In this document: positions 16,516 to 31,258 of the stretch, piece by piece
Position numbering within the stretch: the stretch's first letter is position 1
Layout of the letters: each line of letters starts with the position of its first letter
From: Streptosporangiaceae bacterium
GTDB taxonomy: Bacteria; Actinomycetota; Actinomycetes; Streptosporangiales; Streptosporangiaceae
NCBI GenBank assembly: GCA_036267555.1
Contig: DATAVV010000383.1
Coordinates: 5,443-69,442 of the forward strand
DNA length: 64,000 nucleotides
Reading direction: 5' to 3'
The notes under the pieces: generated by a model
Told to the model about the DNA's origin: nothing
The model's database searches: none
What the model saw: the letters and a program-made list of their open reading frames with translations, nothing else
Translations under genes and position numbers: made by a program

Positions 16516-18709
16516 GCTGCCGAGATGCGCTGTTCGTGCGCTTAAGGCGAGCTGACACGCCATTGCCGTACCGGCCCGCGGGCTCGAGTCCCGCCGCGTA
16601 CTCGCGGATCAGGTCGTGAAACGCGAACCGGCCGGGCACGTGCTCGGTCAGAAGGTGAACGTGGCTGAGCTCACGCAGCAGGTCATGGGCGACGGGGAGG
16701 GGAACGCCGGCCAGGCGGGCCGCCACGGGCACGGTGACGTCGCGGCCCGGGTACCTGCCGAGCAGTCGGAACAGCCGTGCGCCCGGTTCGGTCAGCGCCT
16801 CGTAAGACCAGGAGAAGACCGTTCTCAGGTCGGTCGCGGGGTCCCCGCCGGCCAGGATGTCGAGCCGGCCGGCGCCGCGCCGCAGCTTGTCGGTGAGGAA
16901 GGCCAGCGGGAACGTGCGCTGCGCCGAGGCCAGGGTGGCGGCGATGCTGAGGGCCAGGGGAAGCCGGCCGCACGTCTCGACCAGCCGGGCCGCCGCGTCG
17001 GGCTCGTCGCTCAGGCGCCCCCGGCCCAGGCGGGACGCGAGCAGCTGGCGAGCGGCCTGCCGGCTGAGTACATCCAGTATGAGCAGCTGGGCGCGGTGCA
17101 CGGCGGCGAGCCCGGCGAGCTGGCTGCGGCTGGTGACGATGACCAGGCTGCCAGGGCCGCCCGGCAGCAGCGGCCGAACCTCCTCGACGTCACGGGCATT
17201 GTCCGCGAGCACCAGCATTCGCCGGTCGGCCAGTAACGTCCGGTACAAGGCGGCTCGTTCCTTCTGATGCGCCGGGATGTGCTCGGCGGGCATCCCCAGC
17301 GCCTCGAGGAAGCCGTGTAGCGCCTCCGTTGCACGGACCCGCGCGCCCCGGGGGCCGAAGCCGCCGAGATCGACGTACAGTTGTCCGTCCGGGAAGCAAG
17401 AAGCGGCCTGATGGGCCCATTGGATGGCCAGGGTGGTCTTGCCGACCCCGGCGGCGCCCACGATCGCCGTGATCACCGCCGACCCCCGCGCGGCGGCCGA
17501 GCCCTCCGCCATCCGGCTGAGGTGCGCGGACATCTGCTTCAGCTCATCCGCCCGGCCGACGGTCGGCCACAGCGCGGCCGGGAGCTGGCGCGGCATCGGC
17601 ATCCTGGCCACCGCGGCTGCCGGGTCGGGCAGGCGGTCCGGGGGTTCGCCGCCGAGGACGGCGCCGGTGGTGAGGCGGGCATCCTGACGCAGTATCAGCG
17701 CATGCGCCTGCGCCAGTTCGGCGCCGGGCAGCACACCGAACTCATGGTCCAGCCGCCTTCGGATCTCCTCGTAGATCTGCAGGGCGGCCGCTGCCTCGCC
17801 GCTGCCCGCCAGCGCGGTCATCAGCCTCGCGTGCGCGGGTTCGTGGAACGGGTGCACCGCCGTGGCCGCCCACAACTCGTCCAGCGCGCGCTCGGGATGG
17901 CCGTGCTGCCGGCAGGTATCGGCGTAAGCGAGGACGGTCCCGACGCGCTCCCGGGCCAGGCCGTACGTGGCCTTATGGCCGCGCAGCACATCAAGGTCGG
18001 CCAGCGGCTCGGCCTTCCAGGCCCGCAGCGCGCGCGTGAACAGGTCACTGGCGATCGCCGCGTCGCCCGCCCGCAGCGCGGCCCGGGCCTGCCGGACCAG
18101 GTCCCGGAAGCCGAGCAGGTCCAACTGGTCCGCGGTGACCTGGAGTCGGTAGCTGGTCCTCGCGGATACCAGTAGCCCGTCCTGGTCTTGCGGGGACCGG
18201 GCCGGGTCGAGGGCCGCGCGTAGCCGGCTCACATAGACCTGCACCAGGTTGACGGCGGTCGCCGGCGGCTGCTCCCACAGCGCGTCGATGATGGTCTCTC
18301 TGTGCACTACGGCGTTGGACTCGATGGCGAGGATGGCGAGGACCGCACGCTGCCGGGGCGGCCCGAGCAGGACCGGCCTGCCGTCACGCCATGCGGCCAG
18401 CGGGCCGAGCAGGCGCAGCCGCACTCCGGTGCCCGGCGCGGACTCGGCGTCGGCGCTGGCCACCGGCACGTGGGATTCCTCGGCGGCCAGGGCGAGGGCT
18501 CGCCGCTGTGATGAGTCCAGGAGGAGAGCGTGGCTGAGCTGGGCCAGTGAGCTAGGGCGTGGCCGTGACCTGCGACCTTGCTCCAGGTCTCTGATCGCTG
18601 CGACGCTGAGCCCGCTTCGCTGCGCCAGCGCTGACTGGGAGAGCTCAGCGGATTGCCGCAGTGAACGCAGCATGACGCTGAACTGCCTGGTAGATCTGTT
18701 GTTGCCCAT
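16454..18709 (-). CDS. XRE-HTH / SARP (wHTH+BTAD) / NB-ARC fusion transcriptional regulator
   Basis: The XRE helix-turn-helix is LSQSALAQRSGLSVAAIRDLEQGRR. The SARP wHTH shows LRLLGPLAAWRDGRPV and RQRAVLAILA. A BTAD-like helical region is present. The P-loop is GAAGVGKTTLA. Confidence 0.85.
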   Translation of the reverse strand: MGNNRSTRQFSVMLRSLRQSAELSQSALAQRSGLSVAAIRDLEQGRRSRPRPSSLAQLSHALLLDSSQRRALALAAEESHVPVASADAESAPGTGVRLRLLGPLAAWRDGRPVLLGPPRQRAVLAILAIESNAVVHRETIIDALWEQPPATAVNLVQVYVSRLRAALDPARSPQDQDGLLVSARTSYRLQVTADQLDLLGFRDLVRQARAALRAGDAAIASDLFTRALRAWKAEPLADLDVLRGHKATYGLARERVGTVLAYADTCRQHGHPERALDELWAATAVHPFHEPAHARLMTALAGSGEAAAALQIYEEIRRRLDHEFGVLPGAELAQAHALILRQDARLTTGAVLGGEPPDRLPDPAAAVARMPMPRQLPAALWPTVGRADELKQMSAHLSRMAEGSAAARGSAVITAIVGAAGVGKTTLAIQWAHQAASCFPDGQLYVDLGGFGPRGARVRATEALHGFLEALGMPAEHIPAHQKERAALYRTLLADRRMLVLADNARDVEEVRPLLPGGPGSLVIVTSRSQLAGLAAVHRAQLLILDVLSRQAARQLLASRLGRGRLSDEPDAAARLVETCGRLPLALSIAATLASAQRTFPLAFLTDKLRRGAGRLDILAGGDPATDLRTVFSWSYEALTEPGARLFRLLGRYPGRDVTVPVAARLAGVPLPVAHDLLRELSHVHLLTEHVPGRFAFHDLIREYAAGLEPAGRYGNGVSARLKRTNSASRQHASHGTECTGSPRAEPSAQA

Positions 18710-19191: not shown

Positions 19192-22100
19192 TCAGAGGTG
19201 GTCGCCGAGCTTGTAGCCGCACTCTTCGAGGGCGCCGATGACGCGTTGCTCGTGCCCGGAGAGGCCAAGCTCGCGCAGGATCGGCAGGGCTGCCTTGAGG
19301 TGATCGGCGGCCTGACCGTAACGGCCGAGTGCCTGCTGGGCCAGCGCGATCTTGAACAGGCAGAGGGCGTTGCCTCGCTGCATCCCCCGGTCGCGGAAGA
19401 TCCGCTGCGCCCGGGATAGGGCTTCGATCGCATCGTCGTAGCGGCCCACCGCATGATAGGCATCGCCGAGCGGCCCGAGCGCATAGGCCTCGCCGACCGC
19501 GTAGCCGAGATCGCGGGCCATTTCTTCGCCCCGGCGGCACAGGCTGATGGCCGCCATATGCCGGGAGGCGCTCAGGTTCGCGAAGCCCAGGGTATGGAGG
19601 CACTCGAACTCCGCGTACGGCTCGTGCAGCTCACGCGCGATGGCCAGGGCGCACTCACAAGCCTGGATACCAGCTTCGTGATCACCGAGCCGGGTCGTGG
19701 TCACGCCGAGAATGCGCAGGCTCGACAGTTCGCTGTGGCGATCCCGGACGAGCCGAGCGACCTCAACGCCCTGCACGGCGTCTTTGCGTGCTTCCTGGAG
19801 AAGGTCTTGTTCCTCCGCGCAGTAAGCCCGCCAGTGCAGGGCGAGAGCCAGCGCGCGCTGATCCTCCAGTTGCTCAAAGACGTGGACGCACCGCTGCAGT
19901 ACCGCGAGTGCCTCGGCGTTCTTGCCGCGTTCGGCGGTGAACTGGACGAGTTGCAGTTCCGCGTGCGCGGTCGCCAGGAGATCATCCGCCGAGTCCGCGG
20001 CGGCGATGACCGACCTCCACAGCTGCTCAGCATCGTCAAGACGGGCCTGGAAGAACTGGAAGGCCGCCTGGCGTGCGGCGAGTTGCGCCGCCAGTTCGTG
20101 CCTGCTCGTCGTGCAGGCACGCCTGGTCGCCTCCATGAGGTTAAGCCGTTCCACGTTGAACCAGGTGATCGGATCGGCCGTCAGCCGGCTGACCAGCGCG
20201 CCGGCCACGACACTCTCGTCACGGGAAGCAGCCCGGCGGGGAATCGCCGGGACCCGGGGCAGCCGGAGGTCCGCTGCGGCGGCGACCTCAAGCCAGCCCC
20301 TCAGCACGCGCACGAGGGCGGCGTCGCGTTCTGGCTCCGGTTCGTCGGCCAGCCGCTCGGACGCGTAATCGCGCAGTAGATCGTGCAGCCGGTACCGGGG
20401 CTCGCCGGTGGCGTCGGTCCCCACCGGCATCAGCAGGGACTTGTCCACGAGCTGGTTCACGACGTCGGCAGCATCCCGCTCGCCGAGCAGGGCGGCGATC
20501 ACCCATTCGGCGACGTCGGCCGGCCACAGCAGGCCAATCCGCCGGAATGCCCGGCGCGCCCGCTCCTCCAGCATCTCGTAGCTAGGCATGACGCTGGCCC
20601 GGAACGCCAGGTCGTCCAGGGTTAGCTCGTCCAGCCGCCGCCGCTGGTCGGCGACCGCGTCGGCGATCCGCATGACGGGCCACGCCGGCCGCGTGGCGAG
20701 CTTGGCTCCGGCGATCCGGACGGCCAGGGGCAGCCGCCCGCACGCGGCCACCAGCATGTCACTGGCCGCGGTCTCGGCTGCCACCCGCTCGTGGCCAACG
20801 ATGCGACTCAGCATCGCCACCGCGTCGGAATGCGGCAGCGCATCGAGATGCCGCAGGTGCGCTCCGGCCATCCCGCCCAGCCGGGACCGGCTGGTCACGA
20901 TGACGGCACAGCCCGCGGTGCCGGGCAGCAGCGGCCGTACCTGATCCACGGAGCGGGCATCGTCCGCCATCACCAGGATCTTCTGGCCCGCCATCTGTGA
21001 CCGCAGCAGCGCGGCCCGTTCCGTAGCCGAGTCCGGGATGGCGGATCCGTGGAGTCCGAGAGCCCGCAGCAGCTCGCCCAGGACCTCGGCCGGGTCGCGA
21101 GGAAGCTGGGTGGACCCGGCCAGCTCGACATGCATCTGCCCGTCTGGGAACACGTGCCGGAGCAGGTGCGCCACCTGCAGGGCCAGTGCCGTCTTGCCCA
21201 CCCCAGGCGGCCCGCTGATGACCGCCATGGGCACCCCGACGGAGTCCGGGGTGGGCGTCAGCAGGCTCGTCAGGCTGCCGACCTCCACCGCACGGCCGGT
21301 GAAGTCGGGCAGGGCGGGCGGTAGCTGGCAGACGGGTGCACGCCCGTTGCCGGGCAGCCGGACGCCCTTGACCCGGGCTGGTCCCGAAGCGGATAGGGCG
21401 CTGTCGGCCGCACCGTCTGCCGCCTGCGGGAGATCCTGGCGCAGCACGCGGTCATGGGCCTCAGCCAGTTCGGCACCCGGGTAGACACCGAGCTGGTCAT
21501 CCAGGCGGCGGCGCAGTAGATCGAATGCCTGCAGGGCCGCGGCCTGCTGCCCGATTCCCGCCAAGGCGATCATCAGGTGAGCGTGCGCCTTCTCGTTCAG
21601 CGGCTCGCGCGCGGCGAGCGACTGCAAGTGTGACACCACGCTGTCATGCCGGTGGGCACTGAATGAGGCCTCGGCGTAATCGATGATCAGAGCCGTCTGC
21701 TGACTGGTGAGCCCGGTTACGGCCGGGTGATCGCGTAGCAGGTCCAGCTCGGCCAGGGGGCTCCCGCGCCACAACCCAAGTGCCTTCTCGTACAGCCCGC
21801 AGGCGGCGTCCAGGTCGCCGCGGGCATTCGCTTCGCGGGCGTGCTCGGCCAGTTCGTGGTAGGCCAGCAGGTCGAGCTGTTCCGGGGTCGCGCGCAACAA
21901 GTAGCTGGGGCCGAGCGATTCAAGCGGGGACGCGGAATCTCGCGCGGGCCGGGCCGGATCGAGGATTCTGCGCAACTTGCTGACATGGGCTTGCACCTGG
22001 TTCACCGCCGTGGCAGGCGGGGTATCGCCCCACAGCGCATCAATGATCGCTTCGCGATGCAAGGCGGCGTTCGGGTGCAGGGCGAGAAGACCGAACACCG

Positions 22101-22236
22101 CGCGCCGCATGCCCGCGCCTAGGGCGAACTCAACCCCGCAGCGGGACACGGCCAGAGAACCAAGCACGCTCACCCGCACGCTGTCAGCGGCCGCCCGGGC
22201 ACCGCCTATCCGTGCTGTTGGTTCGATGAACGTCAC
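19192..22236 (-). CDS. AfsR-like SARP / NB-ARC / TPR transcriptional regulator
   Basis: The SARP wHTH shows VSVLGSLAVSRCGVEF and RRAVFGLLAL. A BTAD region is present. The P-loop is GPPGVGKTALA. The C-terminal ~400 aa consists of TPR-like repeats. The start is taken as GTG 22236 (alternative GTG 22179). The ORF-track extension to 22662 runs through low-GC, intergenic-looking DNA. Confidence 0.85.
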   Translation of the reverse strand: MTFIEPTARIGGARAAADSVRVSVLGSLAVSRCGVEFALGAGMRRAVFGLLALHPNAALHREAIIDALWGDTPPATAVNQVQAHVSKLRRILDPARPARDSASPLESLGPSYLLRATPEQLDLLAYHELAEHAREANARGDLDAACGLYEKALGLWRGSPLAELDLLRDHPAVTGLTSQQTALIIDYAEASFSAHRHDSVVSHLQSLAAREPLNEKAHAHLMIALAGIGQQAAALQAFDLLRRRLDDQLGVYPGAELAEAHDRVLRQDLPQAADGAADSALSASGPARVKGVRLPGNGRAPVCQLPPALPDFTGRAVEVGSLTSLLTPTPDSVGVPMAVISGPPGVGKTALALQVAHLLRHVFPDGQMHVELAGSTQLPRDPAEVLGELLRALGLHGSAIPDSATERAALLRSQMAGQKILVMADDARSVDQVRPLLPGTAGCAVIVTSRSRLGGMAGAHLRHLDALPHSDAVAMLSRIVGHERVAAETAASDMLVAACGRLPLAVRIAGAKLATRPAWPVMRIADAVADQRRRLDELTLDDLAFRASVMPSYEMLEERARRAFRRIGLLWPADVAEWVIAALLGERDAADVVNQLVDKSLLMPVGTDATGEPRYRLHDLLRDYASERLADEPEPERDAALVRVLRGWLEVAAAADLRLPRVPAIPRRAASRDESVVAGALVSRLTADPITWFNVERLNLMEATRRACTTSRHELAAQLAARQAAFQFFQARLDDAEQLWRSVIAAADSADDLLATAHAELQLVQFTAERGKNAEALAVLQRCVHVFEQLEDQRALALALHWRAYCAEEQDLLQEARKDAVQGVEVARLVRDRHSELSSLRILGVTTTRLGDHEAGIQACECALAIARELHEPYAEFECLHTLGFANLSASRHMAAISLCRRGEEMARDLGYAVGEAYALGPLGDAYHAVGRYDDAIEALSRAQRIFRDRGMQRGNALCLFKIALAQQALGRYGQAADHLKAALPILRELGLSGHEQRVIGALEECGYKLGDHL

Positions 22237-22500
22237 CCCATATACCCCCCAGTCGGGATCAGTCTCCCCATACAGTAAAAACTGACCAACTCGGTCATGG
22301 CCGATGCTACGCGCATAAGTAGCCAGGCCACGCGTCAGATACCCGATCAATCCGATGAATCGCTGCCGGTCTGGGCGCCGTGACCGCCCCGGCCTCGTTG
22401 ACCGCCGGGGCCCGCTAACGCCGGCGATGTAAATGGATGCTGGCCGGACCGCGGCGCGGCTGGTTACCGTGGGCTGTGCCTGCCGATCCCGCGTCCTGGC

Positions 22501-22713
22501 CAGCCTGCCCGACGGGAACGAGCCCGCGGAGTCGGCCGGAGCCTGGACGCGCTCGACTGGTACGTCGTATTGGCCTGCTTTAAGCTCGGGATCATCCTGG
22601 AGAGTTCCAACGCGCGCGCCTGCGCCGGGCTGACCGACCGCGCGATCGGTGACCGGCTGCACGCCATGTCGCTCGCGCTGTTCGCCCGCGCGCGCCGTCT
22701 CGCCCGGGTGTGA
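22501..22713 (+). pseudogene. 3'-terminal remnant of a phosphotransferase (APH-fold, FadE36-like) gene
   Basis: The frame ending at TGA 22711-22713 reads ..LDALDWYVVLACFKLGIILESSNARACAGLTDRAIGDRLHAMSLALFARARRLARV. This matches the C-terminal WY..LA.FKL..I.EG signature of that family (from memory). No start codon is present and the N-terminal ~280 aa are absent. Confidence 0.45.
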
Positions 22714-22763
22714 GCCGCCCGCCCGCCTGCCGCGTTAAACCGTTGGCCCGAGAAGGGGTGCCG

Positions 22764-23531
22764 ATGACCGACCCGCTGTTCGACCTGTCCGGCCGCGTCG
22801 CGCTCGTGACCGGCGGCAGCCGCGGCCTGGGCCGGGAGATCGCATTCGGCTTCGCCGCGCACGGCGCCCGCGTGATCGTGGCCAGCCGCAAGCAGGAGGC
22901 GTGTGAGCAGGCCGCGGCCGAGATCCGGGCCCGGCACGGCGTCGACGCGTGGGCGATCAGCGCCAACGTCTCGCACTGGGACCAGTGCGACGCGCTGGTA
23001 GATCGTGCCTACGAGCAGGCCGGCCGGGTCGACGTGCTGGTCAACAACGCCGGGCTGTCGCCCGTGTACTCCTCGCTGACCGATGTCACCGAGGCGCTCT
23101 ACGACAAGGTGCTCGCGGTCAATCTCAAGGGGCCATTCCGGCTGGGCACGCTGGTCGGGGAGCGGATGGCCGCCGCCGGCTGCGGCACGATCATCAACAT
23201 CTCCTCGGTGGAGGCGGTGAGCCCTTCGCCCCGCGCGCTGCCCTACGCCGCGGCCAAGGCCGGCCTGGACGCGCTCACGATCGGCCTGGCCAGCGCGTAC
23301 GGCCCCGCGGTCCGGGTCAACACGATCATGGCCGGGCCGTTCCTCACCGACATCAGCAAGGCCTGGGACCTGGACGCGGTCGCCGAGAACCTGCGGCACA
23401 CGGCCGCCCTGGGCCGGGCCGGGCGTCCCGAGGAGATCGTGGGCGCGGCCCTGTACCTCGCGTCGCCGTCCGCCAGTTTCACGTCCGGCGCCACCATCCG
23501 GGTCGACGGCGGCCATGGCGTCGTGCGGTGA
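22764..23531 (+). CDS. SDR-family oxidoreductase
   Basis: A GAAGGGG RBS precedes the ATG. VALVTGGSRGLGREIA is the cofactor motif. NNAG and YAAAKAG are the catalytic motifs. Confidence 0.88.
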   Translation: MTDPLFDLSGRVALVTGGSRGLGREIAFGFAAHGARVIVASRKQEACEQAAAEIRARHGVDAWAISANVSHWDQCDALVDRAYEQAGRVDVLVNNAGLSPVYSSLTDVTEALYDKVLAVNLKGPFRLGTLVGERMAAAGCGTIINISSVEAVSPSPRALPYAAAKAGLDALTIGLASAYGPAVRVNTIMAGPFLTDISKAWDLDAVAENLRHTAALGRAGRPEEIVGAALYLASPSASFTSGATIRVDGGHGVVR

Positions 23532-23558
23532 AAGGTCTATTTCGGTGAAGGAGCGAGA

Positions 23559-24554
23559 GTGACCGAGCTTTACCCGGAAATCGAGCCGTACGCGCAGGGG
23601 ATGCTCGGCGTCGGGGACGGCAACCGCGTGCACTGGGAGTCGAGCGGCAACCCGGCGGGGAAGGCCGCGCTCGTCGTGCACGGCGGCCCGGGTTCGGGTT
23701 CCAATCCGCGGATGCGCCGGTACTTCGACCCCGCGCGGTACCGGATTGTCCAGTTCGACCAGCGCGGCTGCGGCGCCAGCACTCCGCACGCGAGCGACCC
23801 GGCCACCGACATGAGCCACAACACCACCGCGCACCTGATCGCGGACATGGAGCGGCTGCGCGAGCACCTCGGCATCGGCCAGTGGCTGGTGTACGGCGGC
23901 TCCTGGGGCTCCACGCTCACGCTGGCCTACGCCGAGCAGCACCCGGAACGGGTCACCCAGATCGTTCTCTTCGCGGTCACGATGACCCGGCGCAGCGAGA
24001 TCGACTGGCTCTACCGCGGCGCGGGCCGCTTCTTCCCGCGGGAGTGGGAACGGTTCTGGGCTGGGGCGGGCGGCATTCCCCGCCACGGCGACATCGTCGC
24101 CGCCTACGCCGGTTTGGTCGAGCACCCCGACGCCGCCGTCCGGGAGCGAGCGGTCGCCGACTGGTGCGCGTGGGAAGACGCGGTAGTGGCCGCGGAGGCT
24201 GCGCTTTCGGGGAAAACTGTGCTGTCGGGGGAGACCCAGGGCACCTCCAGCCCCTACGGCGGCCGCCCCCCGCTGGCCAAGGTGGCGTTCATGCGCATCT
24301 GCAGCCGCTACTTCGCCCACGGCGCCTGGCTCGAGGAAGGCGTGCTGCTGCGCGAGGCCCACGTGCTGGCCGGGATCCCCGGTGTGCTTATCCACGGCCG
24401 CCTCGACATGGGCGGCCCGCTGATCACCCCCTGGGAACTGTCCCGCGCCTGGCCCGGCGCCCAGTTGCTCGTCGCGGAAGACTCCGGCCACCTCGGCAGC
24501 CCCACCTCCCGCGACCACATCCTCCATGCCCTGAACCGGCTAGCCCTGCGCTAG
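23559..24554 (+). CDS. pip: Prolyl aminopeptidase (proline iminopeptidase), alpha/beta hydrolase
   Basis: GTG start with a GAAGGAG RBS. LYPEIEPYAQGMLGVGDGNRVHWESSGNPAGKAALVVHGGPGSG is the classic Pip N-terminus. GGSWGSTL is the nucleophile elbow. Confidence 0.9.
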   Translation: MTELYPEIEPYAQGMLGVGDGNRVHWESSGNPAGKAALVVHGGPGSGSNPRMRRYFDPARYRIVQFDQRGCGASTPHASDPATDMSHNTTAHLIADMERLREHLGIGQWLVYGGSWGSTLTLAYAEQHPERVTQIVLFAVTMTRRSEIDWLYRGAGRFFPREWERFWAGAGGIPRHGDIVAAYAGLVEHPDAAVRERAVADWCAWEDAVVAAEAALSGKTVLSGETQGTSSPYGGRPPLAKVAFMRICSRYFAHGAWLEEGVLLREAHVLAGIPGVLIHGRLDMGGPLITPWELSRAWPGAQLLVAEDSGHLGSPTSRDHILHALNRLALR

Positions 24555-24644
24555 CGCCCGGGCCAGGCATTTGCGCCTTTGCGTCACGTCAGGGATTACT
24601 TGTGCCTATCCTGGCGAACCTAGCTCGTTCTGCTGGGGGGATAG

Positions 24645-27600
24645 ATGAATCTCTTGCGCCCGCTACGAAAAATAGTCAGCCCGGGCCGCGGTGAGAGGTC
24701 GGCAGGCCTTCAGGCGGCGCTGCAATCGCCTGATGATCCGCTCGAATTGCGTGGCGTGACGATGATCCGGCGTCTTAAGGAAACGACCGGAGATGTATTT
24801 AACGTCGGGTGGTCGCCGGACGGGAATTTTCTTGCCGCAACTTCCTTGAATGGCGGTGTCGCCGTCTGGCAGGCGACAGCCGATCAGCCCCCGCTGCGTT
24901 TGTACGGTCACGGCGCCCGCAACGTGCTGGGGCTGGCGTGGCACCCCACGCGCCCGTTACTGGCGACCGCGGCCCGTGATTGCACCGTGCGGCTGTGGAA
25001 CCTCAGCACCGGAGTTTCCGAAGTACTCAGGGAAGCCCAGGAACTCCTCGGCGTGAGTTGGTCACCAGATGGCCGATGGCTCGCTGTGACGGACGCTCAG
25101 GGTGGTGTCACCGTCTGGGATGAGAGAATTTCGGTGCAGCTTCGGCGTACTAATCTGGCGGCAAGAGAAGTCGCCCGAGCGCGCTGGTCGCCGGATGGCA
25201 GCCTGCTGATCGCCGGCGGCATGGGCATGGGCGTCGACATCCTGGGCAGCCGGAAGCTCGAATTATTGCGCGCGATAGCCTCCCATCTTCAGATCGTTGA
25301 TTTAGATGTGTCTCCCGCTGGCGACAGGATCGCGACTGCCGTCGTGAATGGCGGTGTTGTATCTATCTGGGACGTGAGCACGGGCCAGGAGTGCATTGCC
25401 CTGGAAGGTCACACCGATGAGGTCAATTGCGTACGGTTCTGCCCCGATGGCGAGTTCCTGGCCACAAGATCCGCGCGTCAGACCCGGCTGTGGCGCTGTC
25501 GCGACTGGGAGTGCGTCGCGGTCATCCCCCAGGCTTACGACCACACATGGGGAGGCCTGGACTTTCATCCCCATCAGCCGCTCCTCGCGGTCAAAGGCAA
25601 CGAAGCCGCCGAGATCAGCTGCTGGCGGCTGGACTACGACCTGCTGTTCGGCGCCCAGGTCCGGGCCGATTCCCGGCGCTATGCCAACGCCAAGGTAGTG
25701 CTGCTCGGGGACACCGGGGTGGGCAAGTCCGGGCTGGGGCTGGTGCTCAGCGGCCAGGAGTACCGGCCGACGGACTCAACGCACGGCCGCAACGTCTGGA
25801 CGTTCGGCGCCGAGCAGGTGGAGGCGCCGGGCGGCGGTAGCCAGACGCGTGAGGTGCTGCTGTGGGACCTGGCCGGGCAACCCGGCTACCGGCTTGTCCA
25901 CCAACTGCACCTGAACGAGGTGGCGGTGGCCCTGATCGTGTTCGATTCGCGCAGCGAGACCGACCCGTTCTCAGGCGTCAAGCACTGGGTGCGGGCACTG
26001 GCCCAGGCGCGGCGCCTGGAAGGCGACGCCGCCGTGCCGCTGCGGGCCTACCTGGTGGCGGCGCGGGCCGACCGCGGCGGGGTTGCGGTCACCCGAGACC
26101 GGGTCCGGGCCATGGTGGGCGAACTCGGCCTGGACGGATTCTTCGAGACCAGCGCGAAGGAGGGCTGGCAGGTCACCGACCTGGCCCAGGAGATCAGGAC
26201 GGCCATCGACTGGGAGGCGCTCCCGATGGTCAGTTCCAACGCGCTGTTCGACTCGATCAAGCAGTACCTGGTGGAGGAGAAGCAGCAGGGACGGCTGCTG
26301 TCCACCGTCGACGACCTGTTCCGGGGTTTCCAGCGGACACAGCCCGGCAGCGCCGAAGGCCCGGGGCTACGGGCCAGCTTCGCGGCCTGTGTCGGCCGGG
26401 TCGAGAGCCGAGGGCTCATCCGCCGGCTGCACTTTGGTGGCCTGGTGCTGCTGCAGCCGGAACTGCTGGACGCGTACGCCTCGGCGATGGTCCAGGCCGC
26501 GAAGGAGGAGCCGGAAGGGCTCGGGTTCATCACCGAGCAGGCGGCTCTGAACGGGGACTTCCGGCTGGGGGAGAGCGAGCGGATCACGGACCGGGTCCAG
26601 GAGAAGCTGCTGCTGATCGCGACCGTGGAGGAGTTGCTCCGGCACGAGATCGCGCTGAAGGAGACGACCGACCGCGGAGCCGACCTGGTGTTCCCGTCCC
26701 AGTTCACCAGGGAACGGCCCGACCCGCCCGGCATCCCGGGCCAGCAGGTCGTGTTCACCTTCGAGGGCCCGCTGTACAGCATTTACGCCACGCTGGCCGT
26801 GCGCCTGTCCCACTCCCTGCTGTTCCAGCGCGAAGACATGTGGCAGAACGTCGCGTCCTATACCGCGACCGGCGGCGGGCGCTGCGGCCTTCACGTGCGC
26901 GAACTGGACGAAGGCCGAGGCGAGCTCGTCCTGTTCTTCGACGGGCAGGCCGGGCCGGCGGTGCGCATCCAGTTCGAGGCCTACGTCTTCGAGCACCTCA
27001 GACTGCGCGCGATCCGGGGAACGGTCAGTCGCCGGGGCATCCGGACCTGTTCCCGGTGCGGGTACGTCGTCCCGGAGAATCTGATCCGGCGGCGGCTCGA
27101 CCGGAACGCGGCCAGCCTGCGCTGCCCGGACTGCGAGGAGGCAGTCATCAGCCTGGTCGATGAGCCATCCCGTGAGGGCACCGCGACCGACGCGGCGGTG
27201 GCCGAGATGAACCGCAGCGCAGACGCGCAGCGCAACCGGAACATCGCCGAGACGCGGCTGAAGGGCAAGATCGAGGCGAACGACTACGACGTGTTCCTCT
27301 GCTACAACACCCGGGACCGGCAGCAGGTCAAGGCCATCGCCGGCCGTCTCAAGGAGTACGGCATCCTGCCCTGGCTTGACGTGTGGGACGTCCGCCCTGG
27401 CACCCGCTGGCAGGACGAGCTCGCGCGGCAGATCACGTCGATCAACGCGGCTGCCGTGTTCCTCGGCCCCGGGAGAACGGGACCCTGGCAGGACCTCGAG
27501 ATCCAGGAGATCCTGCAGCAGTTCGCCAAGCGCAAGCGCCCCGTCATCCCGGTCATCCTGGAGGGCCGCGCCGGCCGGCCGCAACTCCCCGGATTCCTCG

Positions 27601-27695
27601 GCCTGTGGCATGTGGTCGACATGCGCCAGGCGGAGCCCGAGCCGATGGGCCAGCTCGTCTGGGGCATCACCGGAGAGAAACAGCCGCTGGCCTAG
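24645..27695 (+). CDS. WD40 - Roc-type small GTPase - COR-like - zinc ribbon - TIR multidomain protein (1016 aa)
   Basis: See the domain sub-features below. A GGGGGGA RBS lies 4 nt before the ATG. The gap to pip is 90 nt. The 5' third is visibly lower in G+C than its neighbours. Confidence 0.9.
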   Translation: MNLLRPLRKIVSPGRGERSAGLQAALQSPDDPLELRGVTMIRRLKETTGDVFNVGWSPDGNFLAATSLNGGVAVWQATADQPPLRLYGHGARNVLGLAWHPTRPLLATAARDCTVRLWNLSTGVSEVLREAQELLGVSWSPDGRWLAVTDAQGGVTVWDERISVQLRRTNLAAREVARARWSPDGSLLIAGGMGMGVDILGSRKLELLRAIASHLQIVDLDVSPAGDRIATAVVNGGVVSIWDVSTGQECIALEGHTDEVNCVRFCPDGEFLATRSARQTRLWRCRDWECVAVIPQAYDHTWGGLDFHPHQPLLAVKGNEAAEISCWRLDYDLLFGAQVRADSRRYANAKVVLLGDTGVGKSGLGLVLSGQEYRPTDSTHGRNVWTFGAEQVEAPGGGSQTREVLLWDLAGQPGYRLVHQLHLNEVAVALIVFDSRSETDPFSGVKHWVRALAQARRLEGDAAVPLRAYLVAARADRGGVAVTRDRVRAMVGELGLDGFFETSAKEGWQVTDLAQEIRTAIDWEALPMVSSNALFDSIKQYLVEEKQQGRLLSTVDDLFRGFQRTQPGSAEGPGLRASFAACVGRVESRGLIRRLHFGGLVLLQPELLDAYASAMVQAAKEEPEGLGFITEQAALNGDFRLGESERITDRVQEKLLLIATVEELLRHEIALKETTDRGADLVFPSQFTRERPDPPGIPGQQVVFTFEGPLYSIYATLAVRLSHSLLFQREDMWQNVASYTATGGGRCGLHVRELDEGRGELVLFFDGQAGPAVRIQFEAYVFEHLRLRAIRGTVSRRGIRTCSRCGYVVPENLIRRRLDRNAASLRCPDCEEAVISLVDEPSREGTATDAAVAEMNRSADAQRNRNIAETRLKGKIEANDYDVFLCYNTRDRQQVKAIAGRLKEYGILPWLDVWDVRPGTRWQDELARQITSINAAAVFLGPGRTGPWQDLEIQEILQQFAKRKRPVIPVILEGRAGRPQLPGFLGLWHVVDMRQAEPEPMGQLVWGITGEKQPLA
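24771..25640 (+). other. Domain: WD40-like beta-propeller (about 7 blades)
   Basis: Repeated units are GWSPDGNFLAAT..VAVWQ, LAWHPTRPLLATA..VRLWN, VSWSPDGRWLAVT..VTVWD, ARWSPDGSLLIAG, LDVSPAGDRIATA..VSIWD, VRFCPDGEFLATR..TRLWR and LDFHPHQPLLAVK..ISCWR. Confidence 0.85.
25686..26204 (+). other. Domain: Ras/Roc-like GTPase
   Basis: G1 is KVVLLGDTGVGKS (K361). G3 is LLWDLAGQ. G4 is degenerate (ARAD instead of NKxD). G5 is TSAK. Confidence 0.8.
26217..27029 (+). other. Domain: COR-like region (assigned by position and length after Roc)
   Basis: A ~270-aa helical/wHTH-looking segment (GLIRRLHFGGLVLLQPELLDAYASAMV ..) sits immediately C-terminal to the GTPase. No diagnostic motif could be verified by eye. 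Confidence 0.4.
27048..27137 (+). other. Domain: CxxC...CxxC zinc ribbon
   Basis: CSRCGYVVPENLIRRRLDRNAASLRCPDCE, with cysteines C802, C805, C827 and C830. Confidence 0.7.
27282..27659 (+). other. Domain: TIR
   Basis: YDVFLCYNTRDRQQVKAIAGRLKEYGILPWLDVWDVRPGTRWQDEL..AAAVFLGPG..GPWQDLEIQE. The WxxxE arrangement places the candidate catalytic Glu at E952 (nt 27498-27500). Confidence 0.85.
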
Positions 27696-27715
27696 CGCGG
27701 GCCGGTCCGGTGCCG

Positions 27716-28013
27716 CTAGGCGTTGCCGGATATCGCGGCGTTCCAGAACTTCTGGATCTCCGGGTAGATCAGGCGTCGAACGGGTTGGTGAAGAAGCTGG
27801 TGACCGACAGCATGTTGACGATCGCGCCGCCGTTGCGGCCGAGCACCGGCGCGAAGGCCCGGCACATGCTCAGCGTGCCGAAGTAGTTGGTCTCCATCTC
27901 CAGCCGGGCCGCGTCGAGGTTCGGCGCGCCGGGGAACGTGCTGTACTGCAGCACGCCCGCGTTGTTCACCAGCAGGCTGACGTCCGCGCAGCCTAAAGCT
28001 ATGGGGATGAGCG
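27716..28013 (-). pseudogene. SDR-family gene remnant (N-terminus missing, internal deletion/frameshift)
   Basis: The minus strand reads ..ADVSLLVNNAGV..NYFGTLSMCRAFAPVLGRNGGAIVNMLSVTSF, then a stop at 27769. A C-terminal-looking tail RLIYPEIQKFWNAAISGNA* follows in another frame (stop 27716-27718). The TGxxxGxG Rossmann motif and the YxxxK catalytic motif are both absent. Confidence 0.5.
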
Positions 28014-28976
28014 TCAGCGCCTGGCCTTGTACTCGTAGAACGTGGTGTTCACCGCGCAGGTACCCGGCTGGATGATGCTCACCCGCAGCACGCCGGTGGC
28101 GGTGTCGTAGTCGTCGCCCTCGGCCTCGAACGTTCCGGTGCAGGAACTGCGCTGCGGAATCGAGCCGAGGTCGATGACGTGGCCGGCCACGCTGTGGCCG
28201 TTCAGCTTCCGGGCCAGGACGACCTCCAGCAGCGGCTTGGCGTTGCTGAACAGGGTCTGCGTCGAGTCGTCGGACTCGCAGATCAGCCGCCGGGCGGTGA
28301 CGAAGTCGCAGCCCTGGATGTCGTTGACCGGGTGGTCCAGCTTGACGTACCCGGCGAGCCGCAGCGACCCGCCCTTGCGCGCGGTGGCCCGGTTCAGGAT
28401 CGGCGTCGGGTAGATCTGCAGGTGCGTCATCGTGTTCCACTCGCCGGAGAGCGTCCAGCGGGTGCTGGGCGAGACCGCCACCCACGAGTTGTTGTACAAC
28501 TCGCCGGTGACCAGCGTGTGCACGTACTGGTACTGAGCGCCGGACGGCGTGGTGACCAGGTACATCTTCGACGTGCCCGTGCTGGCCTTCCACTGGTAGT
28601 CGTCGAAGATGTAGCCGCGCGCCGAGTCCGGGTCGCCGATGTGCTGCCAGCCCGCCACGGCCAGGGGGATCGAGATCGACCCGAGGCCCCGGTAGAGCGT
28701 GTATGGCGTGCCGTGGCGGGGCGTGACCGTCGCCACGCCCTCGCCCGCGGTCAGCGTGGGCTCGGTGTAGCTGCGGGCCTGCCGCCAGCCCGCGATGCCG
28801 TGTGCGGACAGCGGGCGGGTCACGCCGGCGGCGCGGGCGGCGGCCGCGGCGGGGGTGGCGGGGGCGGGCAGGAAGACAGCCAGCGCGAGCCCGGCGGAAA
28901 CGGCGACGGCCGCTCCGGCGGCGGCCACCCGGAGGCGGTGGCGAGCTGCCACGCGGAAGATTTGGGGCGCAGTCAC
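28014..28976 (-). CDS. Secreted protein of unknown function (320 aa)
   Basis: The N-terminus (RVAAAGAAVAVSAGLALAVFLPAPATPAAAAARA) looks like a signal or Tat-like leader. The rest has coding-like composition (Y/W/T-rich, few R/P runs). I recognise no family motif. Confidence 0.6.
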   Translation of the reverse strand: MTAPQIFRVAARHRLRVAAAGAAVAVSAGLALAVFLPAPATPAAAAARAAGVTRPLSAHGIAGWRQARSYTEPTLTAGEGVATVTPRHGTPYTLYRGLGSISIPLAVAGWQHIGDPDSARGYIFDDYQWKASTGTSKMYLVTTPSGAQYQYVHTLVTGELYNNSWVAVSPSTRWTLSGEWNTMTHLQIYPTPILNRATARKGGSLRLAGYVKLDHPVNDIQGCDFVTARRLICESDDSTQTLFSNAKPLLEVVLARKLNGHSVAGHVIDLGSIPQRSSCTGTFEAEGDDYDTATGVLRVSIIQPGTCAVNTTFYEYKARR

Positions 28977-29067
28977 AGTCGCACTATGTCAGAACCTGTG
29001 CCGGTTCGCGGCGTGACCCCGGGCACTGGGCCGTGCGGTGCCGCCGCCGCGCGCCTAGGGTCGTGTC

Positions 29068-30480
29068 ATGGAGCCAGCACAGCAGGCCGTGACCGCGCCC
29101 GGGGTGCTGCTCGAGGCGCTGGGCCGGGGCCTGCCCGGCGACCGCGTCGTGGCCGATCCCGACGTGCTCGCCGCGATCTCGCACGACGAGGCCGAGTGGG
29201 CGCCGGCCGCGGCCGCGGCCGCCGGGGTGCGCGCGCGGTCCGAGGCCGAGGTGCAGCACGTGGTGCGGGTCTGCGCCGAACTGACCGTGCCGGTCGTGCC
29301 GCGCGGGGCGGGCACCGGGCTGTCCGGCGGGGCGAACGCGGTCAGCGGCTGCGTCATCCTCGACCTGTCGCGCATGAACCAGGTCCTCGAGATCGACCCC
29401 GACAACCTGGTGTGCGTCGTGCAGCCCGGCGCGGTCAACAACGACGTCAAGGCGGCCGTGGCCGAGCACGGCCTGTGGTACCCGCCGGATCCGGCCAGCG
29501 CCCCGTGGTCCACGATCGGCGGCAACGTCGCCACCAACGCCGGCGGCCTGTGCTGCCTGAAGTACGGCGTCACCCGGGACTACGTGCTCGGCCTGCGCGC
29601 GGTCGTCGGCGGGCCTGTCGCCTACGGCGACGCCGTGCGCCTCGGCCGGCGCACCACCAAGGGCGTGGCCGGGCTCGACCTGGCCGGGCTGTTCGTCGGG
29701 GCCGAGGGCACGCTCGGGGTCGTAACCGAGGTGACGCTGCGGCTTCGGCCCGCGCCGGCGGGCACGCCGCGCACGATCGTCGGCGCGTTCGGTGACCTGG
29801 TCTCCTCGGGCCGGGCCGTAGCCCAGATCACCCGGCGCGGGCTCACCCCGGCCGTGCTTGAACTGCTCGACCGGGCCTGCCTGGAAGCGGTCGAGGACTG
29901 GAAGCACCTGGGCCTGGAGGCGGACGCCGCCGCGCTGCTGCTGGCCCGCGTGGACACGCCGGGGGACTCCGGTGCGGCCGAGTCCGCCGCGGTCGCGTCG
30001 ACCATGACCGGCGCCGGGGCGCTCTGGGTCGAGCAGTCGACCGACGAGACCGAGGCCGAGGCGCTGTTCGAGGCGCGGCGGCTGGCCTACCCGGCGCTGG
30101 AACGGCTCGGCCCGGTGCTCACCGAGGATGTCTGCGTGCCGCGGTCCAAGGTCCCGGAGATGCTGGAGCGGGTGAGCGCGATCGCCGCCCGCCGCGGCGT
30201 GCGGGTCGCGACGATCGCCCACGCGGGCGACGGCAACCTGCACCCGCTGCTGATCACGCCGCCGGGCGACGAGGCGGCGCGGGTCGCGGCCCAGGCCGCG
30301 TTCGAGGAGTTCCTCGACGCGGCGATCGCGCTCGGCGGCACGGTCACCGGTGAGCACGGGGTCGGGATCCTGAAGCGGGATGGCATGCGCCGCGAACTCG
30401 ACCCCGGTTCCCTGGCGCTGCAGTCCGCGGTGCGCCGCGCCCTCGACCCGCTGGAGATCTTCAACCCGGGCAAGGGCTGA
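29068..30480 (+). CDS. FAD-binding oxidase (GlcD / D-lactate dehydrogenase-like)
   Basis: VVPRGAGTGLSGGA FAD motif and GEHGVGILKR C-terminal motif. The length is 470 aa. Confidence 0.88.
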   Translation: MEPAQQAVTAPGVLLEALGRGLPGDRVVADPDVLAAISHDEAEWAPAAAAAAGVRARSEAEVQHVVRVCAELTVPVVPRGAGTGLSGGANAVSGCVILDLSRMNQVLEIDPDNLVCVVQPGAVNNDVKAAVAEHGLWYPPDPASAPWSTIGGNVATNAGGLCCLKYGVTRDYVLGLRAVVGGPVAYGDAVRLGRRTTKGVAGLDLAGLFVGAEGTLGVVTEVTLRLRPAPAGTPRTIVGAFGDLVSSGRAVAQITRRGLTPAVLELLDRACLEAVEDWKHLGLEADAAALLLARVDTPGDSGAAESAAVASTMTGAGALWVEQSTDETEAEALFEARRLAYPALERLGPVLTEDVCVPRSKVPEMLERVSAIAARRGVRVATIAHAGDGNLHPLLITPPGDEAARVAAQAAFEEFLDAAIALGGTVTGEHGVGILKRDGMRRELDPGSLALQSAVRRALDPLEIFNPGKG

Positions 30481-30499
30481 CGCCGGGCCCGCGGTGCCG

Positions 30500-31258
30500 T
30501 CAGGGCTTGCGGGCCTCGATGAGGAACCGCGCGCTGTGCGCCACGAACGGGCCGTCGGCCTCGATCCGGTCGTGCAGCGCACGCAGCCGGCCGGCGTAGC
30601 GCTCCACGCTGAAGTCCGGCACCATCCAGATCACCTTGCGCAGGAAGTAGACCACCGCCCCGATGTCGAAGAACTCGACGCGCAGCGTCTCCGGGCGCAG
30701 GCTGGTGACCTCCAGGCCCGCGGCCTGCGCCCGGGCCCTGGCCTTCCCGGGATCACGCCTGCCCCGGACATCGGGCGGCTGCGGGCCGAGGAACCACTCG
30801 ACGAGTTCGAACACGCTGGCCGGGCCGACCTGCTGCGAGAAATACGTGCCGCCCGGCTGCAGCACCCGTGCGATCTCCGCCCACCGGGTGACCACCGGAT
30901 GGCGGGAAACCACCAGGTCGAAGGCTTCCGCCGCGAACGGCAGCGGCGGCTTGTCCTCGTCGGCGACCACGGCCACCCCGCGCGGGTGCAGCAGCCGGGT
31001 CGCCTTGACCACGTTCGGCGGCCACGCCTCGGTGGCCACGGTCAGCGGGGCCAGGTGTGCGGCTCCGGCCAGCACCTCGCCGCCACCGGTCTGGATGTCC
31101 AACGCGGCGCGGGCGCTGGCCATCTTCGCGCCCATCGCTCGCTGGTAGCCCCACGAGGGACGCTCCTCGGTGGCCCGGCCGTCCAGCCACGAGAAGTCCC
31201 AGCCGTCGACCGAAACGCAGCCGGCCTCGGCGATCAAGTCCTCGAACGCGCGCGACAT
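30500..31258 (-). CDS. Class I SAM-dependent methyltransferase
   Basis: The start is taken at ATG 31258 (MSRAFEDL). ALDIQTGGGEVL is motif I-like. FDLVVSRH and LQPGGTYF are also present. The upstream ORF extension is R/G/A-rich and non-coding-looking. Confidence 0.75.
   Translation of the reverse strand: MSRAFEDLIAEAGCVSVDGWDFSWLDGRATEERPSWGYQRAMGAKMASARAALDIQTGGGEVLAGAAHLAPLTVATEAWPPNVVKATRLLHPRGVAVVADEDKPPLPFAAEAFDLVVSRHPVVTRWAEIARVLQPGGTYFSQQVGPASVFELVEWFLGPQPPDVRGRRDPGKARARAQAAGLEVTSLRPETLRVEFFDIGAVVYFLRKVIWMVPDFSVERYAGRLRALHDRIEADGPFVAHSARFLIEARKP

Follow-up and report, generated by a model that had tools for sequence, protein, structure and literature searches.

Does a gene that strings a WD40 propeller, a Ras/Roc-type GTPase, a zinc ribbon and a TIR domain into one bacterial polypeptide encode an immune receptor? 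The question is raised by a locus in the 64,000-nucleotide stretch of DNA analysed here (the window), for which a sequence-only reading had proposed a sensor (WD40), a switch (Roc-COR) and an effector (TIR) joined in a single chain. That proposal was supported wherever it could be tested in silico. The protein is probably a bacterial immune or cell-suicide receptor of a type that comparative genomics had predicted before, immune function being what we infer for the gene. Its features are collected in Table 1.

Table 1. Features of the gene and its product, with nucleotide positions in the window.
Feature	Residues	Position	Strand	Basis or remarks
Shine-Dalgarno-like ribosome-binding site GGGGGGA		24635..24641	+	3 nt 5' of ATG; read from sequence
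Complete ORF, WD40 - Roc - COR - zinc ribbon - helix - TIR	1-1016	24645..27695	+	1016 aa + stop, ATG start
N-terminal leader	1-39	24645..24761	+	Poorly conserved (23% mean family identity); GC3 0.65; dN/dS 0.44
Seven-bladed WD40 beta-propeller, putative sensor	40-335	24762..25649	+	Pfam WD40 and propeller models
Roc/Rab-like small GTPase	345-524	25677..26216	+	Pfam Ras and Roc; K361 codon 25725-25727
Cryptic COR (COR-A + COR-B)	525-795	26217..27029	+	Predicted fold
Four-cysteine zinc ribbon (C802, C805, C827, C830)	796-840	27030..27164	+	Conserved Cys
Charged linker; one long predicted alpha-helix, aa 846-877	841-879	27165..27281	+	DSSP on AF2 model
TIR domain, W948-x-x-x-E952	880-1016	27282..27692	+	TIR_2; E952 codon 27498-27500

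The gene has a ribosome-binding site of its own, as had been described, and both the GGGGGGA motif and the ATG are kept in two related loci (P0001 and P0002), where a frame-preserving 3-nt indel lies downstream. The upstream gap of 90 nt was given correctly. The downstream neighbour is convergent as stated, yet it turned out to be an 83-aa remnant of an SDR gene. A JGI metagenome contig carries an identical protein with the same neighbours. All residue numbers assigned earlier agree with the translation and with an alignment of 40 family sequences.

Some seven WD40 blades had been counted in the N-terminal part. Seven WSPDG-type blade signatures can indeed be read there, Pfam WD40 (PF00400, 111 bits) and propeller models match aa 40-330 above their gathering cut-offs, and the WD40 repeat protein of PDB entry 2ymu matches the propeller with an E value of 2e-69. 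The following domain is recognized by Pfam Ras (PF00071, 56.4 bits, cut-off 21.6) and Roc (PF08477, 51.8 bits, cut-off 27), in accord with the proposed Ras/Roc-type GTPase. Its motifs are G1 GDTGVGKS (with K361), G3 WDLAGQ (407-412), the degenerate G4 ARAD (473-476) and G5 TSAK (502-505); the alignment of 40 homologues shows no variation in the P-loop Lys, the DxxGQ, R474 and D476 (both in G4) or the TSA belonging to G5. In sequence the GTPase resembles Rab no less than Roc. Its best matches in the PDB are Rab7L1, Rab22 and Rab11, and the top 60 contain no Roco protein.

Between the GTPase and the zinc ribbon lies a segment that had been called COR-like by its position. The Pfam COR models (COR-A, COR-B) gave no match at E<=1 to this middle segment and none in four divergent family members, and a phmmer search of the PDB with the segment found nothing; it is thus by fold and not by sequence that the protein counts as a member of the ROCO family. 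An AF2 model covering aa 341-1016 (pLDDT 90.9, pTM 0.90) was compared with the PDB by Foldseek, and its top 19 matches were all ROCO structures, aligned over 355-590 columns (525-590 in all except the COR-B-truncated 4wnr). They include LRRK2 (8fo9, E 6e-17), LRRK1 (8e05, E 6e-17), 3dpu, 6hlu and M. barkeri 4wnr, with a TM score normalised to the target of 0.61 for both 4wnr and 3dpu, the RocCOR of C. tepidum. Plain Rab proteins appear from rank 20 onward only, over about 180 columns. When the GTPase was left out (aa 521-850, pLDDT 92.2), all of the top 12 matches, at E values from 9e-10 to 2e-4, were to the COR of C. tepidum Roco or to LRRK2, the former (3dpt/3dpu) aligned over about 320 columns at E 1e-9 to 1e-8. 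The segment, then, is without a Pfam COR match but COR in the AlphaFold/Foldseek comparison; by predicted fold the middle module is a COR domain and the switch a Roc-COR tandem.

The CxxC..CxxC zinc ribbon was located correctly, all four cysteines being invariant in 40 homologues and showing little or no variation among 84 diverse members. Pfam Zn_Ribbon_TF stays below threshold on it (18 bits against a cut-off of 29), and the region forms small beta-strands in the AF2 model. The predicted helix of the charged linker corresponds to residues 506-537 of the aa 341-1016 construct. The TIR domain is matched by Pfam TIR_2 (PF13676) at aa 883-1004 with 79 bits (cut-off 28). A profile built on the TIR of the family matches 82 PDB TIR sequences, the best of them bacterial (7uxr and AbTIR 7uwg/8g83, E about 1e-13), and 8g83 was deposited as NAD(+) hydrolase AbTIR. 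In the hmmsearch alignment W948-Q-D-L-E952 falls on W-t-n-y-E of AbTIR, and in the 40-sequence alignment E952 is invariant and W948 nearly so. The WxxxE claimed for this TIR was thereby recovered on a proper alignment; the domain keeps the catalytic Glu of NAD-cleaving TIRs, and NADase activity is predicted.

The COR module is carried by 1441 clusters at 50% identity. Mean family identity is 81% in the GTPase, 74% in COR and 64% in the TIR domain; the Roc-COR chassis is thus conserved (74-81%), and the WD40 sensor, at 39%, is not. Compared with a 94%-identical relative, 45 of the 57 differences fall in aa 1-335. The WD40 part has a GC3 of 0.72 and a dS 4.7 times that of the chassis, and a step in both measures where WD40 meets Roc suggests that sensor propellers may be exchanged between alleles through recombination. 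Its dN/dS is 0.16, which gives no gene-wide signal of positive selection, and neither tandem-repeat homogenisation nor hypervariable repeat shuffling of the HET-E type was found in the blades. Overall, the WD40 part evolves fast, in the manner of a sensor that diversifies.

Variation also affects the other end of the protein. Among 133 representatives with a full C-terminus, the output is TIR in 114 (86%) and a class III cyclase in 18 (14%), sometimes together with TIR, with PNP_UDP_1 (2), nSTAND2 (2) and GmrSD_N (1) as rarer forms. At the N-terminus, some members have an additional caspase, kinase or NACHT-like module (a Ser/Thr kinase in P0242 and P0260), and kinase and FHA modules are present in some. 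The C-terminal position looks like a slot for interchangeable effectors, and both sensors and outputs are swapped on the chassis, which is a modular and mobile unit. The family was found also in Acidobacteriota and Vecturithrix, with about 70% identity between Actinomycetota and an Acidobacteriota MAG, and a published supplement places it in cyanobacteria and archaea as well (Kaur et al., 2021; PMC8195603). Transposases adjoin two homologues; the plasmid and viral collections searched held no relatives of the gene.

In the window, the gene lies outside any defence island, at the edge of an NRPS cluster and among SDR, hydrolase and oxidase genes. About 10 homologue contexts, made up mostly of housekeeping genes, share no conserved neighbour, in keeping with the description of the gene as standing alone. 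In some lineages (L008/L018 and L001/L009) the gene is syntenic, indicating stable inheritance there and not rapid turnover. No system protein model of PADLOC-DB v2 gave a full-length match; the matches obtained were local, weak and confined to the TIR region (SAVED_TIR at 33.8 bits, bSEFIR, PDC-S66). Thoeris was rejected, a SIR2/SLOG, Macro or other conserved partner being absent from the window and from the approximately 10 homologue contexts. A STAND/NLR/Avs receptor was rejected as well: no STAND or AAA family occurs in the best 25 of the 42 matches that Pfam gave for the whole protein, and only ROCO and Rab structures were matched by the model of aa 341-1016. Two NB-ARC proteins are encoded elsewhere in the window (16454-18709 and 19192-22662); these are separate SARP regulators.

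We consider it fairly probable that the protein is a self-contained, single-polypeptide receptor of the ROCO family, that is, an AP-GTPase-centred conflict system sensing through its WD40 part and causing arrest or death through its TIR. At rest, Roc-COR would keep the protein inactive through its nucleotide and oligomeric state. Once the WD40 propeller binds a non-self ligand, most likely a protein of a phage or other invader, the Roc-COR cycle would shift, and the C-terminal arm of zinc ribbon, helix and TIR would rearrange, allowing the TIR to self-associate and form a composite active site. Cleavage of NAD+, leading to its depletion or to ADPR or cADPR-type products, may then arrest or kill the infected cell (abortive infection or programmed death). 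This would be the receptor logic of NLR and Avs proteins with a small GTPase and COR in place of the STAND ATPase. Several observations speak against the receptor reading: the alternative outputs include cyclase and kinase/FHA, which are classical signalling domains and not toxins, and to these are added the non-defence context, the lack of a PADLOC match, the low dN/dS of the WD40 part and the synteny within lineages.

On a rival reading the protein is a signalling enzyme and not a suicide effector, its Roc-COR-controlled TIR making a cADPR-isomer messenger for an unlinked effector, for normal physiology or for development. We regard this as rather unlikely. AbTIR-type enzymes make cADPR isomers, and it is these that the TIR most closely resembles; the class III nucleotidyl cyclase, borne on the same chassis by 14% of representatives and sometimes next to TIR, would make a cNMP; Ser/Thr kinase and FHA modules are typical of signal transduction; and the contexts are mostly non-defence. 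A conserved partner or receptor gene is, however, absent nearby in the approximately 10 contexts, and the PNP_UDP_1 nucleosidase and nuclease-type GmrSD_N found in the slot, like the N-terminal caspase, are typical of effectors that kill or degrade. Moreover, TIR NADases are well known as single-gene defence proteins.

A self/non-self or developmental death switch of filamentous multicellular actinomycetes, comparable to the fungal HET-E/NWD WD40 NLRs of heterokaryon incompatibility and not antiviral, is less probable still. The spread over Acidobacteriota, Vecturithrix, cyanobacteria and archaea points instead to horizontal transfer of a general-purpose module, and the blades lack repeat homogenisation or shuffling of the HET-E type. 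This has to be set against old WD40 alleles, strongly diverged even synonymously, on a homogenised chassis, the pattern expected under balancing selection on recognition alleles, and against a Streptosporangiaceae-like host lineage, stable synteny in some lineages and the link drawn between such systems and the multicellular habit (Kaur et al., 2021; PMC8195603). A TIR serving as a non-enzymatic scaffold for interactions, in a protein that forms a regulatory GTPase complex of the housekeeping kind and plays no part in conflict, is very improbable, since the catalytic Glu and the WxxxE are invariant, the family profile best matches bacterial TIRs including the NAD(+) hydrolase AbTIR, the output slot is swapped with enzymes and the family is patchily distributed, at about 70% identity between phyla, even if the adaptor MAL/TIRAP is the best PDB match of the TIR in a single-sequence search and the neighbourhoods consist of housekeeping genes.

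A wider and more tentative possibility, nearly as apt to be right as wrong, is that prokaryotes possess, in the ROCO GTPases, a second class of NTP-switched innate immune receptors, one that is independent of STAND. The WD40-fronted clade with a Pfam-invisible COR, which numbers >1400 clusters at 50% identity, would make up a major branch, in which a propeller ligand would drive an LRRK2-type Roc-COR cycle that gates TIR oligomerisation and NAD+ cleavage. Were this true, the switch of LRRK2 would originally have done immune sensing, and the small bacterial proteins would be tractable models of how Roc-COR passes its signal to an enzymatic output.

AP-GTPase-COR-effector conflict systems were predicted, as counter-invader systems, by Kaur, Burroughs, Iyer and Aravind (eLife 2021; PMC8195603, section 15, Fig 6D). 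They treat LRR - AP-GTPase - COR - effector as canonical, LRR...COR+TIR accounting for about 580 entries, and the supplement (PMC8195603, Figure 6-source data 1) also lists BetaPropeller+AP-GTPase+PrimaseZnR+TIR (PKL67687.1, Methanobacteriales), the composition seen here, and BetaPropeller+AP-GTPase+TIR (HFS11412.1, Anabaena). Like these systems, the present protein is encoded by a standalone gene and combines a sensor made of repeats with an AP-GTPase switch and, at the C-terminus, a variable effector that may be TIR. It differs from the canonical form in carrying a WD40 propeller in place of the LRR sensor, and from the beta-propeller entries, which have no COR annotated between GTPase and zinc ribbon, in that this gap is here a divergent COR by predicted fold. 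The sequence-only reading had known of no characterised defence system of this composition; no PADLOC system and no experimental study of any family member was found, but the architecture itself had already been predicted (PMC8195603). The class is thus not conceptually new, and it is known purely computationally.

Likeness to C. tepidum Roco (3dpu/3dpt/6hlu) and M. barkeri Roco2 (4wnr) lies in the Roc-COR fold, with COR-A and COR-B both covered, and in the intact G motifs; 3dpu aligns over about 540 columns and 4wnr, which is truncated in COR-B, over 355. In sequence no more than 12-15% is identical, and the bacterial and archaeal Rocos have an LRR N-terminus, whereas here there is WD40, with zinc ribbon and TIR at the C-terminus; the prokaryotic Rocos known at the time of a 2019 review of the family were all LRR-Roc-COR. 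Those bacterial Roco proteins that have been characterised are dimers mediated by COR-B that become monomers when GTP binds (the GAD mechanism; PMC6337361).

Avs, bNACHT, TIR-NLR proteins and plant TNLs follow the same logic of repeat sensor, NTP switch and TIR effector in one polypeptide, again with a variable sensor and swappable effectors. Their switch is a STAND ATPase (NB-ARC/NACHT) and not a small GTPase with COR, and most NLRs have the reverse order, the sensor being N-terminal and the effector C-terminal here. The best matches to the TIR among solved structures are the AbTIR-type NADases (7uwg, 7uxu, 8g83; 7uxr), with WxxxE aligned; similarity in sequence is modest, and AbTIR is a coiled-coil-TIR protein without sensor or GTPase. 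The best structural matches to the switch are the human ROCO kinases LRRK2 and LRRK1. The G4 motif of LRRK2 is likewise degenerate with its Asp kept, and a Roc-COR switch, an enzymatic output and a WD40 domain are combined there, as here, in one polypeptide. The ankyrin, armadillo and LRR repeats of LRRK2/LRRK1 have no counterpart in the present protein, the WD40 domain is C-terminal in LRRK2 and N-terminal here, and the output is a kinase there and a TIR here.

The open reading frame under study is real, and every coordinate that the sequence-only reading had assigned to it proved correct when checked against the translation and a 40-sequence family alignment. Its ATG start is supported by a frame-preserving 3-nt indel downstream and by the conservation of the ATG and of the SD-like motif GGGGGGA in the loci of its two closest relatives, P0001 (94% identical) and P0002. 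The WD40 propeller, the GTPase and the TIR domain recognized by eye were all recovered by Pfam: WD40 at aa 40-330 (111 bits), with a THOC3-type propeller model matching at aa 50-316 and seven WSPDG-like blade signatures visible in the translation; Ras (56.4 bits, cut-off 21.6) and Roc (51.8 bits, cut-off 27) at aa 350-520; and TIR_2 (79 bits, cut-off 28) at aa 883-1004. Invariant in the family alignment are the P-loop GxxGVGKS (K361), WDLAGQ (D408, G411, Q412), R474 and D476 of 'ARAD' and T502/S503/A504, as well as the four cysteines of the claimed zinc ribbon (C802/C805/C827/C830) and E952 of the TIR. A scan of 24300-28100 found no sigma-70-like promoter, and terminator-like sites occurred there at chance level (2 found vs 1.7 expected from shuffling).

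The segment following the GTPase had been called COR-like from its position. Pfam COR-A and COR-B gave no match at E<=1 to aa 507-881, Pfam COR models found nothing in four divergent family members either, and when aa 341-882 were run against the PDB with phmmer, the GTPase alone matched (best Rab7L1, Rab22 and Rab11). For aa 341-1016, an AlphaFold2 model based on an 84-sequence alignment reached a mean pLDDT of 90.9 and a pTM of 0.90, and its top 19 Foldseek matches in the PDB were ROCO proteins without exception. These include LRRK2 (8fo9_A, E 5.8e-17, 565 columns), the RocCOR tandem of C. tepidum (3dpu_A, E 1.7e-14, TM 0.61 normalised to the 485-residue target), LRRK1 (8e05), 6hlu and M. 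barkeri Roco2 (4wnr); the ordinary Rabs start at rank 20 and align over some 180 columns. When aa 521-850 were modelled by themselves (pLDDT 92.2), the top 12 matches were again COR, with the C. tepidum 'COR domain' (3dpt/3dpu) first at E 9e-10 to 2e-8 over about 320 columns covering both COR-A and COR-B, followed by LRRK2, and with unrelated folds from E ~1e-3. The positional guess was thus right at the level of fold, and the curated COR HMMs fail on this module because its sequence is too diverged (12-15% identity). According to these models, the apparent gap is a cryptic COR, making the members of the clade true ROCO proteins. The predicted structure also places a long helix, aa 846-877, between the zinc ribbon and the TIR.

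An exhaustive phmmer search of 1.84 billion representatives with the COR-like module (aa 525-800) returned 1441 clusters at E<=1e-3, of which 1031 pass E<=1e-10 and 466 pass E<=1e-30. Among the top 150 matches, a GTPase precedes the module in every non-truncated protein. The output domain is exchanged within the family: in the 133 of these representatives with a complete C-terminus, TIR was found in 114 and a class III nucleotidyl cyclase (PF00211) in 18, five of them also counted under TIR, while PNP_UDP_1 and nSTAND2 occurred twice each, GmrSD_N once, and four C-termini were of unknown type or coiled-coil. In P0125, P0221, P0149, P0162, P0244 and P0186 the TIR is replaced by a cyclase, a cyclase with a PNP_UDP_1 nucleosidase, a cyclase with GmrSD_N, or nSTAND2; the P0149 cyclase is degenerate (17 bits) and may serve as an adaptor. 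Extra N-terminal domains also occur, namely a Ser/Thr kinase ahead of the propellers (P0242, P0260), a kinase with FHA (P0138), a Peptidase_C14 caspase with HEAT (P0218) and a NACHT-N-helical domain with a P-loop (P0122). The members combining kinase, WD40 and Roc-COR have the same domain set as LRRK2, but in a different order.

The sensor varies far more than the Roc-COR chassis. Compared with the window protein, the mean identity of WD40 is 39%, whereas the GTPase reaches 81%, COR 74%, the zinc ribbon 54% and the TIR 64%, and 45 of the 57 substitutions separating it from P0001 lie within aa 1-335. As far as sequence comparison can tell, such uneven conservation is what a variable sensor, a frozen switch and an exchangeable output would show. 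At the DNA level the change is abrupt: GC3 is about 0.71-0.72 in the sensor-coding third, vs 0.91 elsewhere in the gene and 0.92-0.95 in neighbouring genes, and the step falls at the WD40/Roc junction near aa 350 (24645-25690 vs 25690-27695). This step recurs in seven of eight homologous genes from different lineages, the loci showing it besides the window being L012, L014, L001, L007, L009 and L011. Synonymous divergence follows the same boundary (WD40 0.35 and chassis 0.075 against P0001; 1.07 and 0.45 against P0002), and differences per 50-codon window fall there from 10-29 to 0-5. These data suggest that older sensor alleles were recombined onto a homogenised chassis, that cassettes were imported or exchanged, or that the mutation rate is locally raised. 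Gene-wide positive selection on the sensor is unsupported, since WD40 dN/dS is only 0.16-0.28 (Nei-Gojobori, whole propeller, three sequences). Tandem-repeat homogenisation from blade to blade was not found in the WD40 region at the DNA level.

The gene lies at the edge of a biosynthetic cluster that encodes an NRPS (C-A-T-C), a lantibiotic-dehydratase-like protein, a penicillin amidase, a class II DAHP synthase, an ADC/anthranilate-type synthase, an aromatic amino-acid hydroxylase and two SARP BTAD-NB-ARC(-TPR) regulators. The hydroxylase gene (composition bin 14001-16000) is a second compositionally atypical gene, in a window of 0.72 GC overall. The downstream neighbour is convergent, as had been noted, but it is an SDR remnant instead of an intact gene; it may be a decayed gene marking an old insertion junction. 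The same remnant is also found in L015, a metagenome locus with an identical protein. Beyond it lie an unknown gene, an FAD-linked oxidase and a methyltransferase. No gene in these surroundings is defence-related.

Features of the target gene and its surroundings in the window
Feature	Position	Strand	Remark
NRPS-type biosynthetic gene cluster	29-22662		Target gene at its edge
Aromatic amino-acid hydroxylase gene	15577-16563	-	GC 0.61, GC3 0.70
SDR	22710-23531	+	Upstream of target
Alpha/beta hydrolase	23559-24554	+	Directly upstream of target, 90-nt gap
SD-like GGGGGGA	24635-24641	+	Upstream of target ATG
Target gene	24645-27695	+	ATG start, 1016 codons plus stop
Terminator-like hairpin, T-rich tail	25335-25356	+	Within WD40 coding region
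SDR remnant, 83 aa	27769-28020	-	Directly downstream of target; adh_short profile positions 77-144 only

The identical protein and its neighbourhood are present on a JGI metagenome contig, the nearest named relatives come from Streptosporangiaceae MAGs, and the 90% cluster includes one such protein, named 'TIR domain-containing protein' by NCBI. A protein from an Acidobacteriota (Korobacteraceae) MAG has about 70% identity to the window protein, which points to horizontal transfer. Carriage by known elements was not supported: megablast of 22000-30500 against PLSDB matched just a neighbouring oxidase gene (76%), and IMG/VR held only small-GTPase fragments at 28% and no relatives. Two pairs of homologue loci are syntenic (L001/L009 and L008/L018), and a transposase lies next door in L007 (IS110) and L017 (Y1_Tnp). 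The surroundings of these last two homologues look mobile or defence-like, comprising the IS110 transposase, a gene for a 173-aa WD40 fragment and an nSTAND1-TPR protein in L007 (1741-11683), and the Y1 transposase, a HEPN-nucleotidyltransferase pair and a CHAT-STAND protein in L017 (13224-21187). Molybdoenzyme genes (MoCoBD, Fer2_2, FAD_binding_5) adjoin the homologue in L008 (5227-6494), L018 (10810-14407) and L016 (13278-17073). Nicotinate-type hydroxylases belong to the xanthine-dehydrogenase enzyme family. A gene of this family was considered as a conserved partner and rejected, being confined to a single synteny group of actinobacteria plus an independent locus of a distant 6.5-Mb genome, with none in the window or in eight other loci; its proximity is probably coincidental.

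To the extent that sequence and predicted structure allow, the earlier reading of the protein as sensor, switch and effector in one chain is borne out by the domains, the Roc-COR fold, the variability of the sensor, the exchange of outputs, the lack of a partner gene and the catalytic residues, which the alignments indicate to be intact in both GTPase and TIR. A ligand bound at the WD40 propeller would cause a shift in the Roc-COR cycle, upon which the zinc ribbon and long helix would move the TIRs into association, and the associated TIRs would cleave NAD+, arresting or killing the cell. This mechanism builds on what is established for Roco proteins, which dimerise through COR-B, become monomers when GTP binds and follow a GAD-type cycle (PMC6337361; PMC11052575), and for TIR enzymes, which need self-association to form the active site (PMC10899771). 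Taken as a whole, we consider it the probable reading, with appreciable room for others.

Chief among these is that the TIR, as the cyclase paralogues would, produces a second messenger that acts on an unlinked target; no conserved neighbour or partner gene was seen across about ten other homologue contexts, and we regard this reading as rather unlikely. A developmental or allorecognition death switch appears improbable. That the TIR is a non-enzymatic scaffold is very unlikely. A PDB search with the single sequence gave weak matches headed by the adaptor MAL; a 12-sequence family profile matched best the bacterial TIRs 7uxr and AbTIR 7uwg/8g83 (E 7e-14 to 4e-13), of which 8g83 is deposited as the NAD(+) hydrolase AbTIR. 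In the profile alignment the family motif G-x-W-Q-x-L-E falls on K-D-W-T-N-Y-E of AbTIR, the WxxxE catalytic motif, so the catalytic glutamate is present on a proper alignment. The WxxxE glutamate is catalytic in AbTIR and SARM1.

For bacterial immunity, a phage or toxicity phenotype, if positive, would bring in a new class of switch; to our knowledge, the single-chain sensors known so far (Avs, bNACHT, TIR-NLR) all have STAND ATPases. The coupling between the Roc-COR nucleotide cycle and an output domain has long been a question in the ROCO/LRRK2 field, and we know of no bacterial Roco model studied to date with an enzymatic output. With its 1016 aa, a simple readout in NAD+ consumption, the point mutants K361A and E952A and a structure predicted with very high confidence, the protein would allow this coupling to be tested directly. 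For annotation, a large clade is missed by the Pfam COR models, and its members thus carry database names such as 'WD40 repeat protein', 'GTPase SAR1 family protein' and 'TIR domain-containing protein'.

The window protein falls in no PADLOC system, and NCBIfam has nothing specific for it. It would work much as NLR/Avs receptors do, yet it has no STAND ATPase and is therefore not one of them; nor is it Thoeris, as it lacks a ThsA-type partner. Two systematic TIR surveys do not mention GTPase or WD40 fusions (PMC11350192; bioRxiv 10.64898/2025.12.03.692087), and a 2019 ROCO review described all prokaryotic Rocos then known as LRR-Roc-COR. The closest known kind is the predicted AP-GTPase-centred conflict systems, in which LRR, AP-GTPase and COR precede a variable effector drawn from at least 24 domains, including TIR (Kaur et al., 2021; PMC8195603). 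The table of AP-GTPases without detected LRR in that study lists 'BetaPropeller+AP-GTPase+TIR' and 'BetaPropeller+AP-GTPase+PrimaseZnR+TIR', so this architecture was already catalogued, there with no COR recognised and no discussion. In keeping with the earlier statement that no prokaryotic defence system of this composition is known to have been characterised experimentally, the literature searched yielded no experimental paper on any ROCO-TIR protein; the architecture itself had been predicted computationally. The protein is tractable and relevant to the control of output by Roc-COR, but no conceptual surprise for specialists who know the Aravind-lab predictions. What is new relative to that catalogue is the assignment of the gap, by predicted structure, to a cryptic COR, the size and grammar of the clade, and the discontinuity between sensor and chassis.
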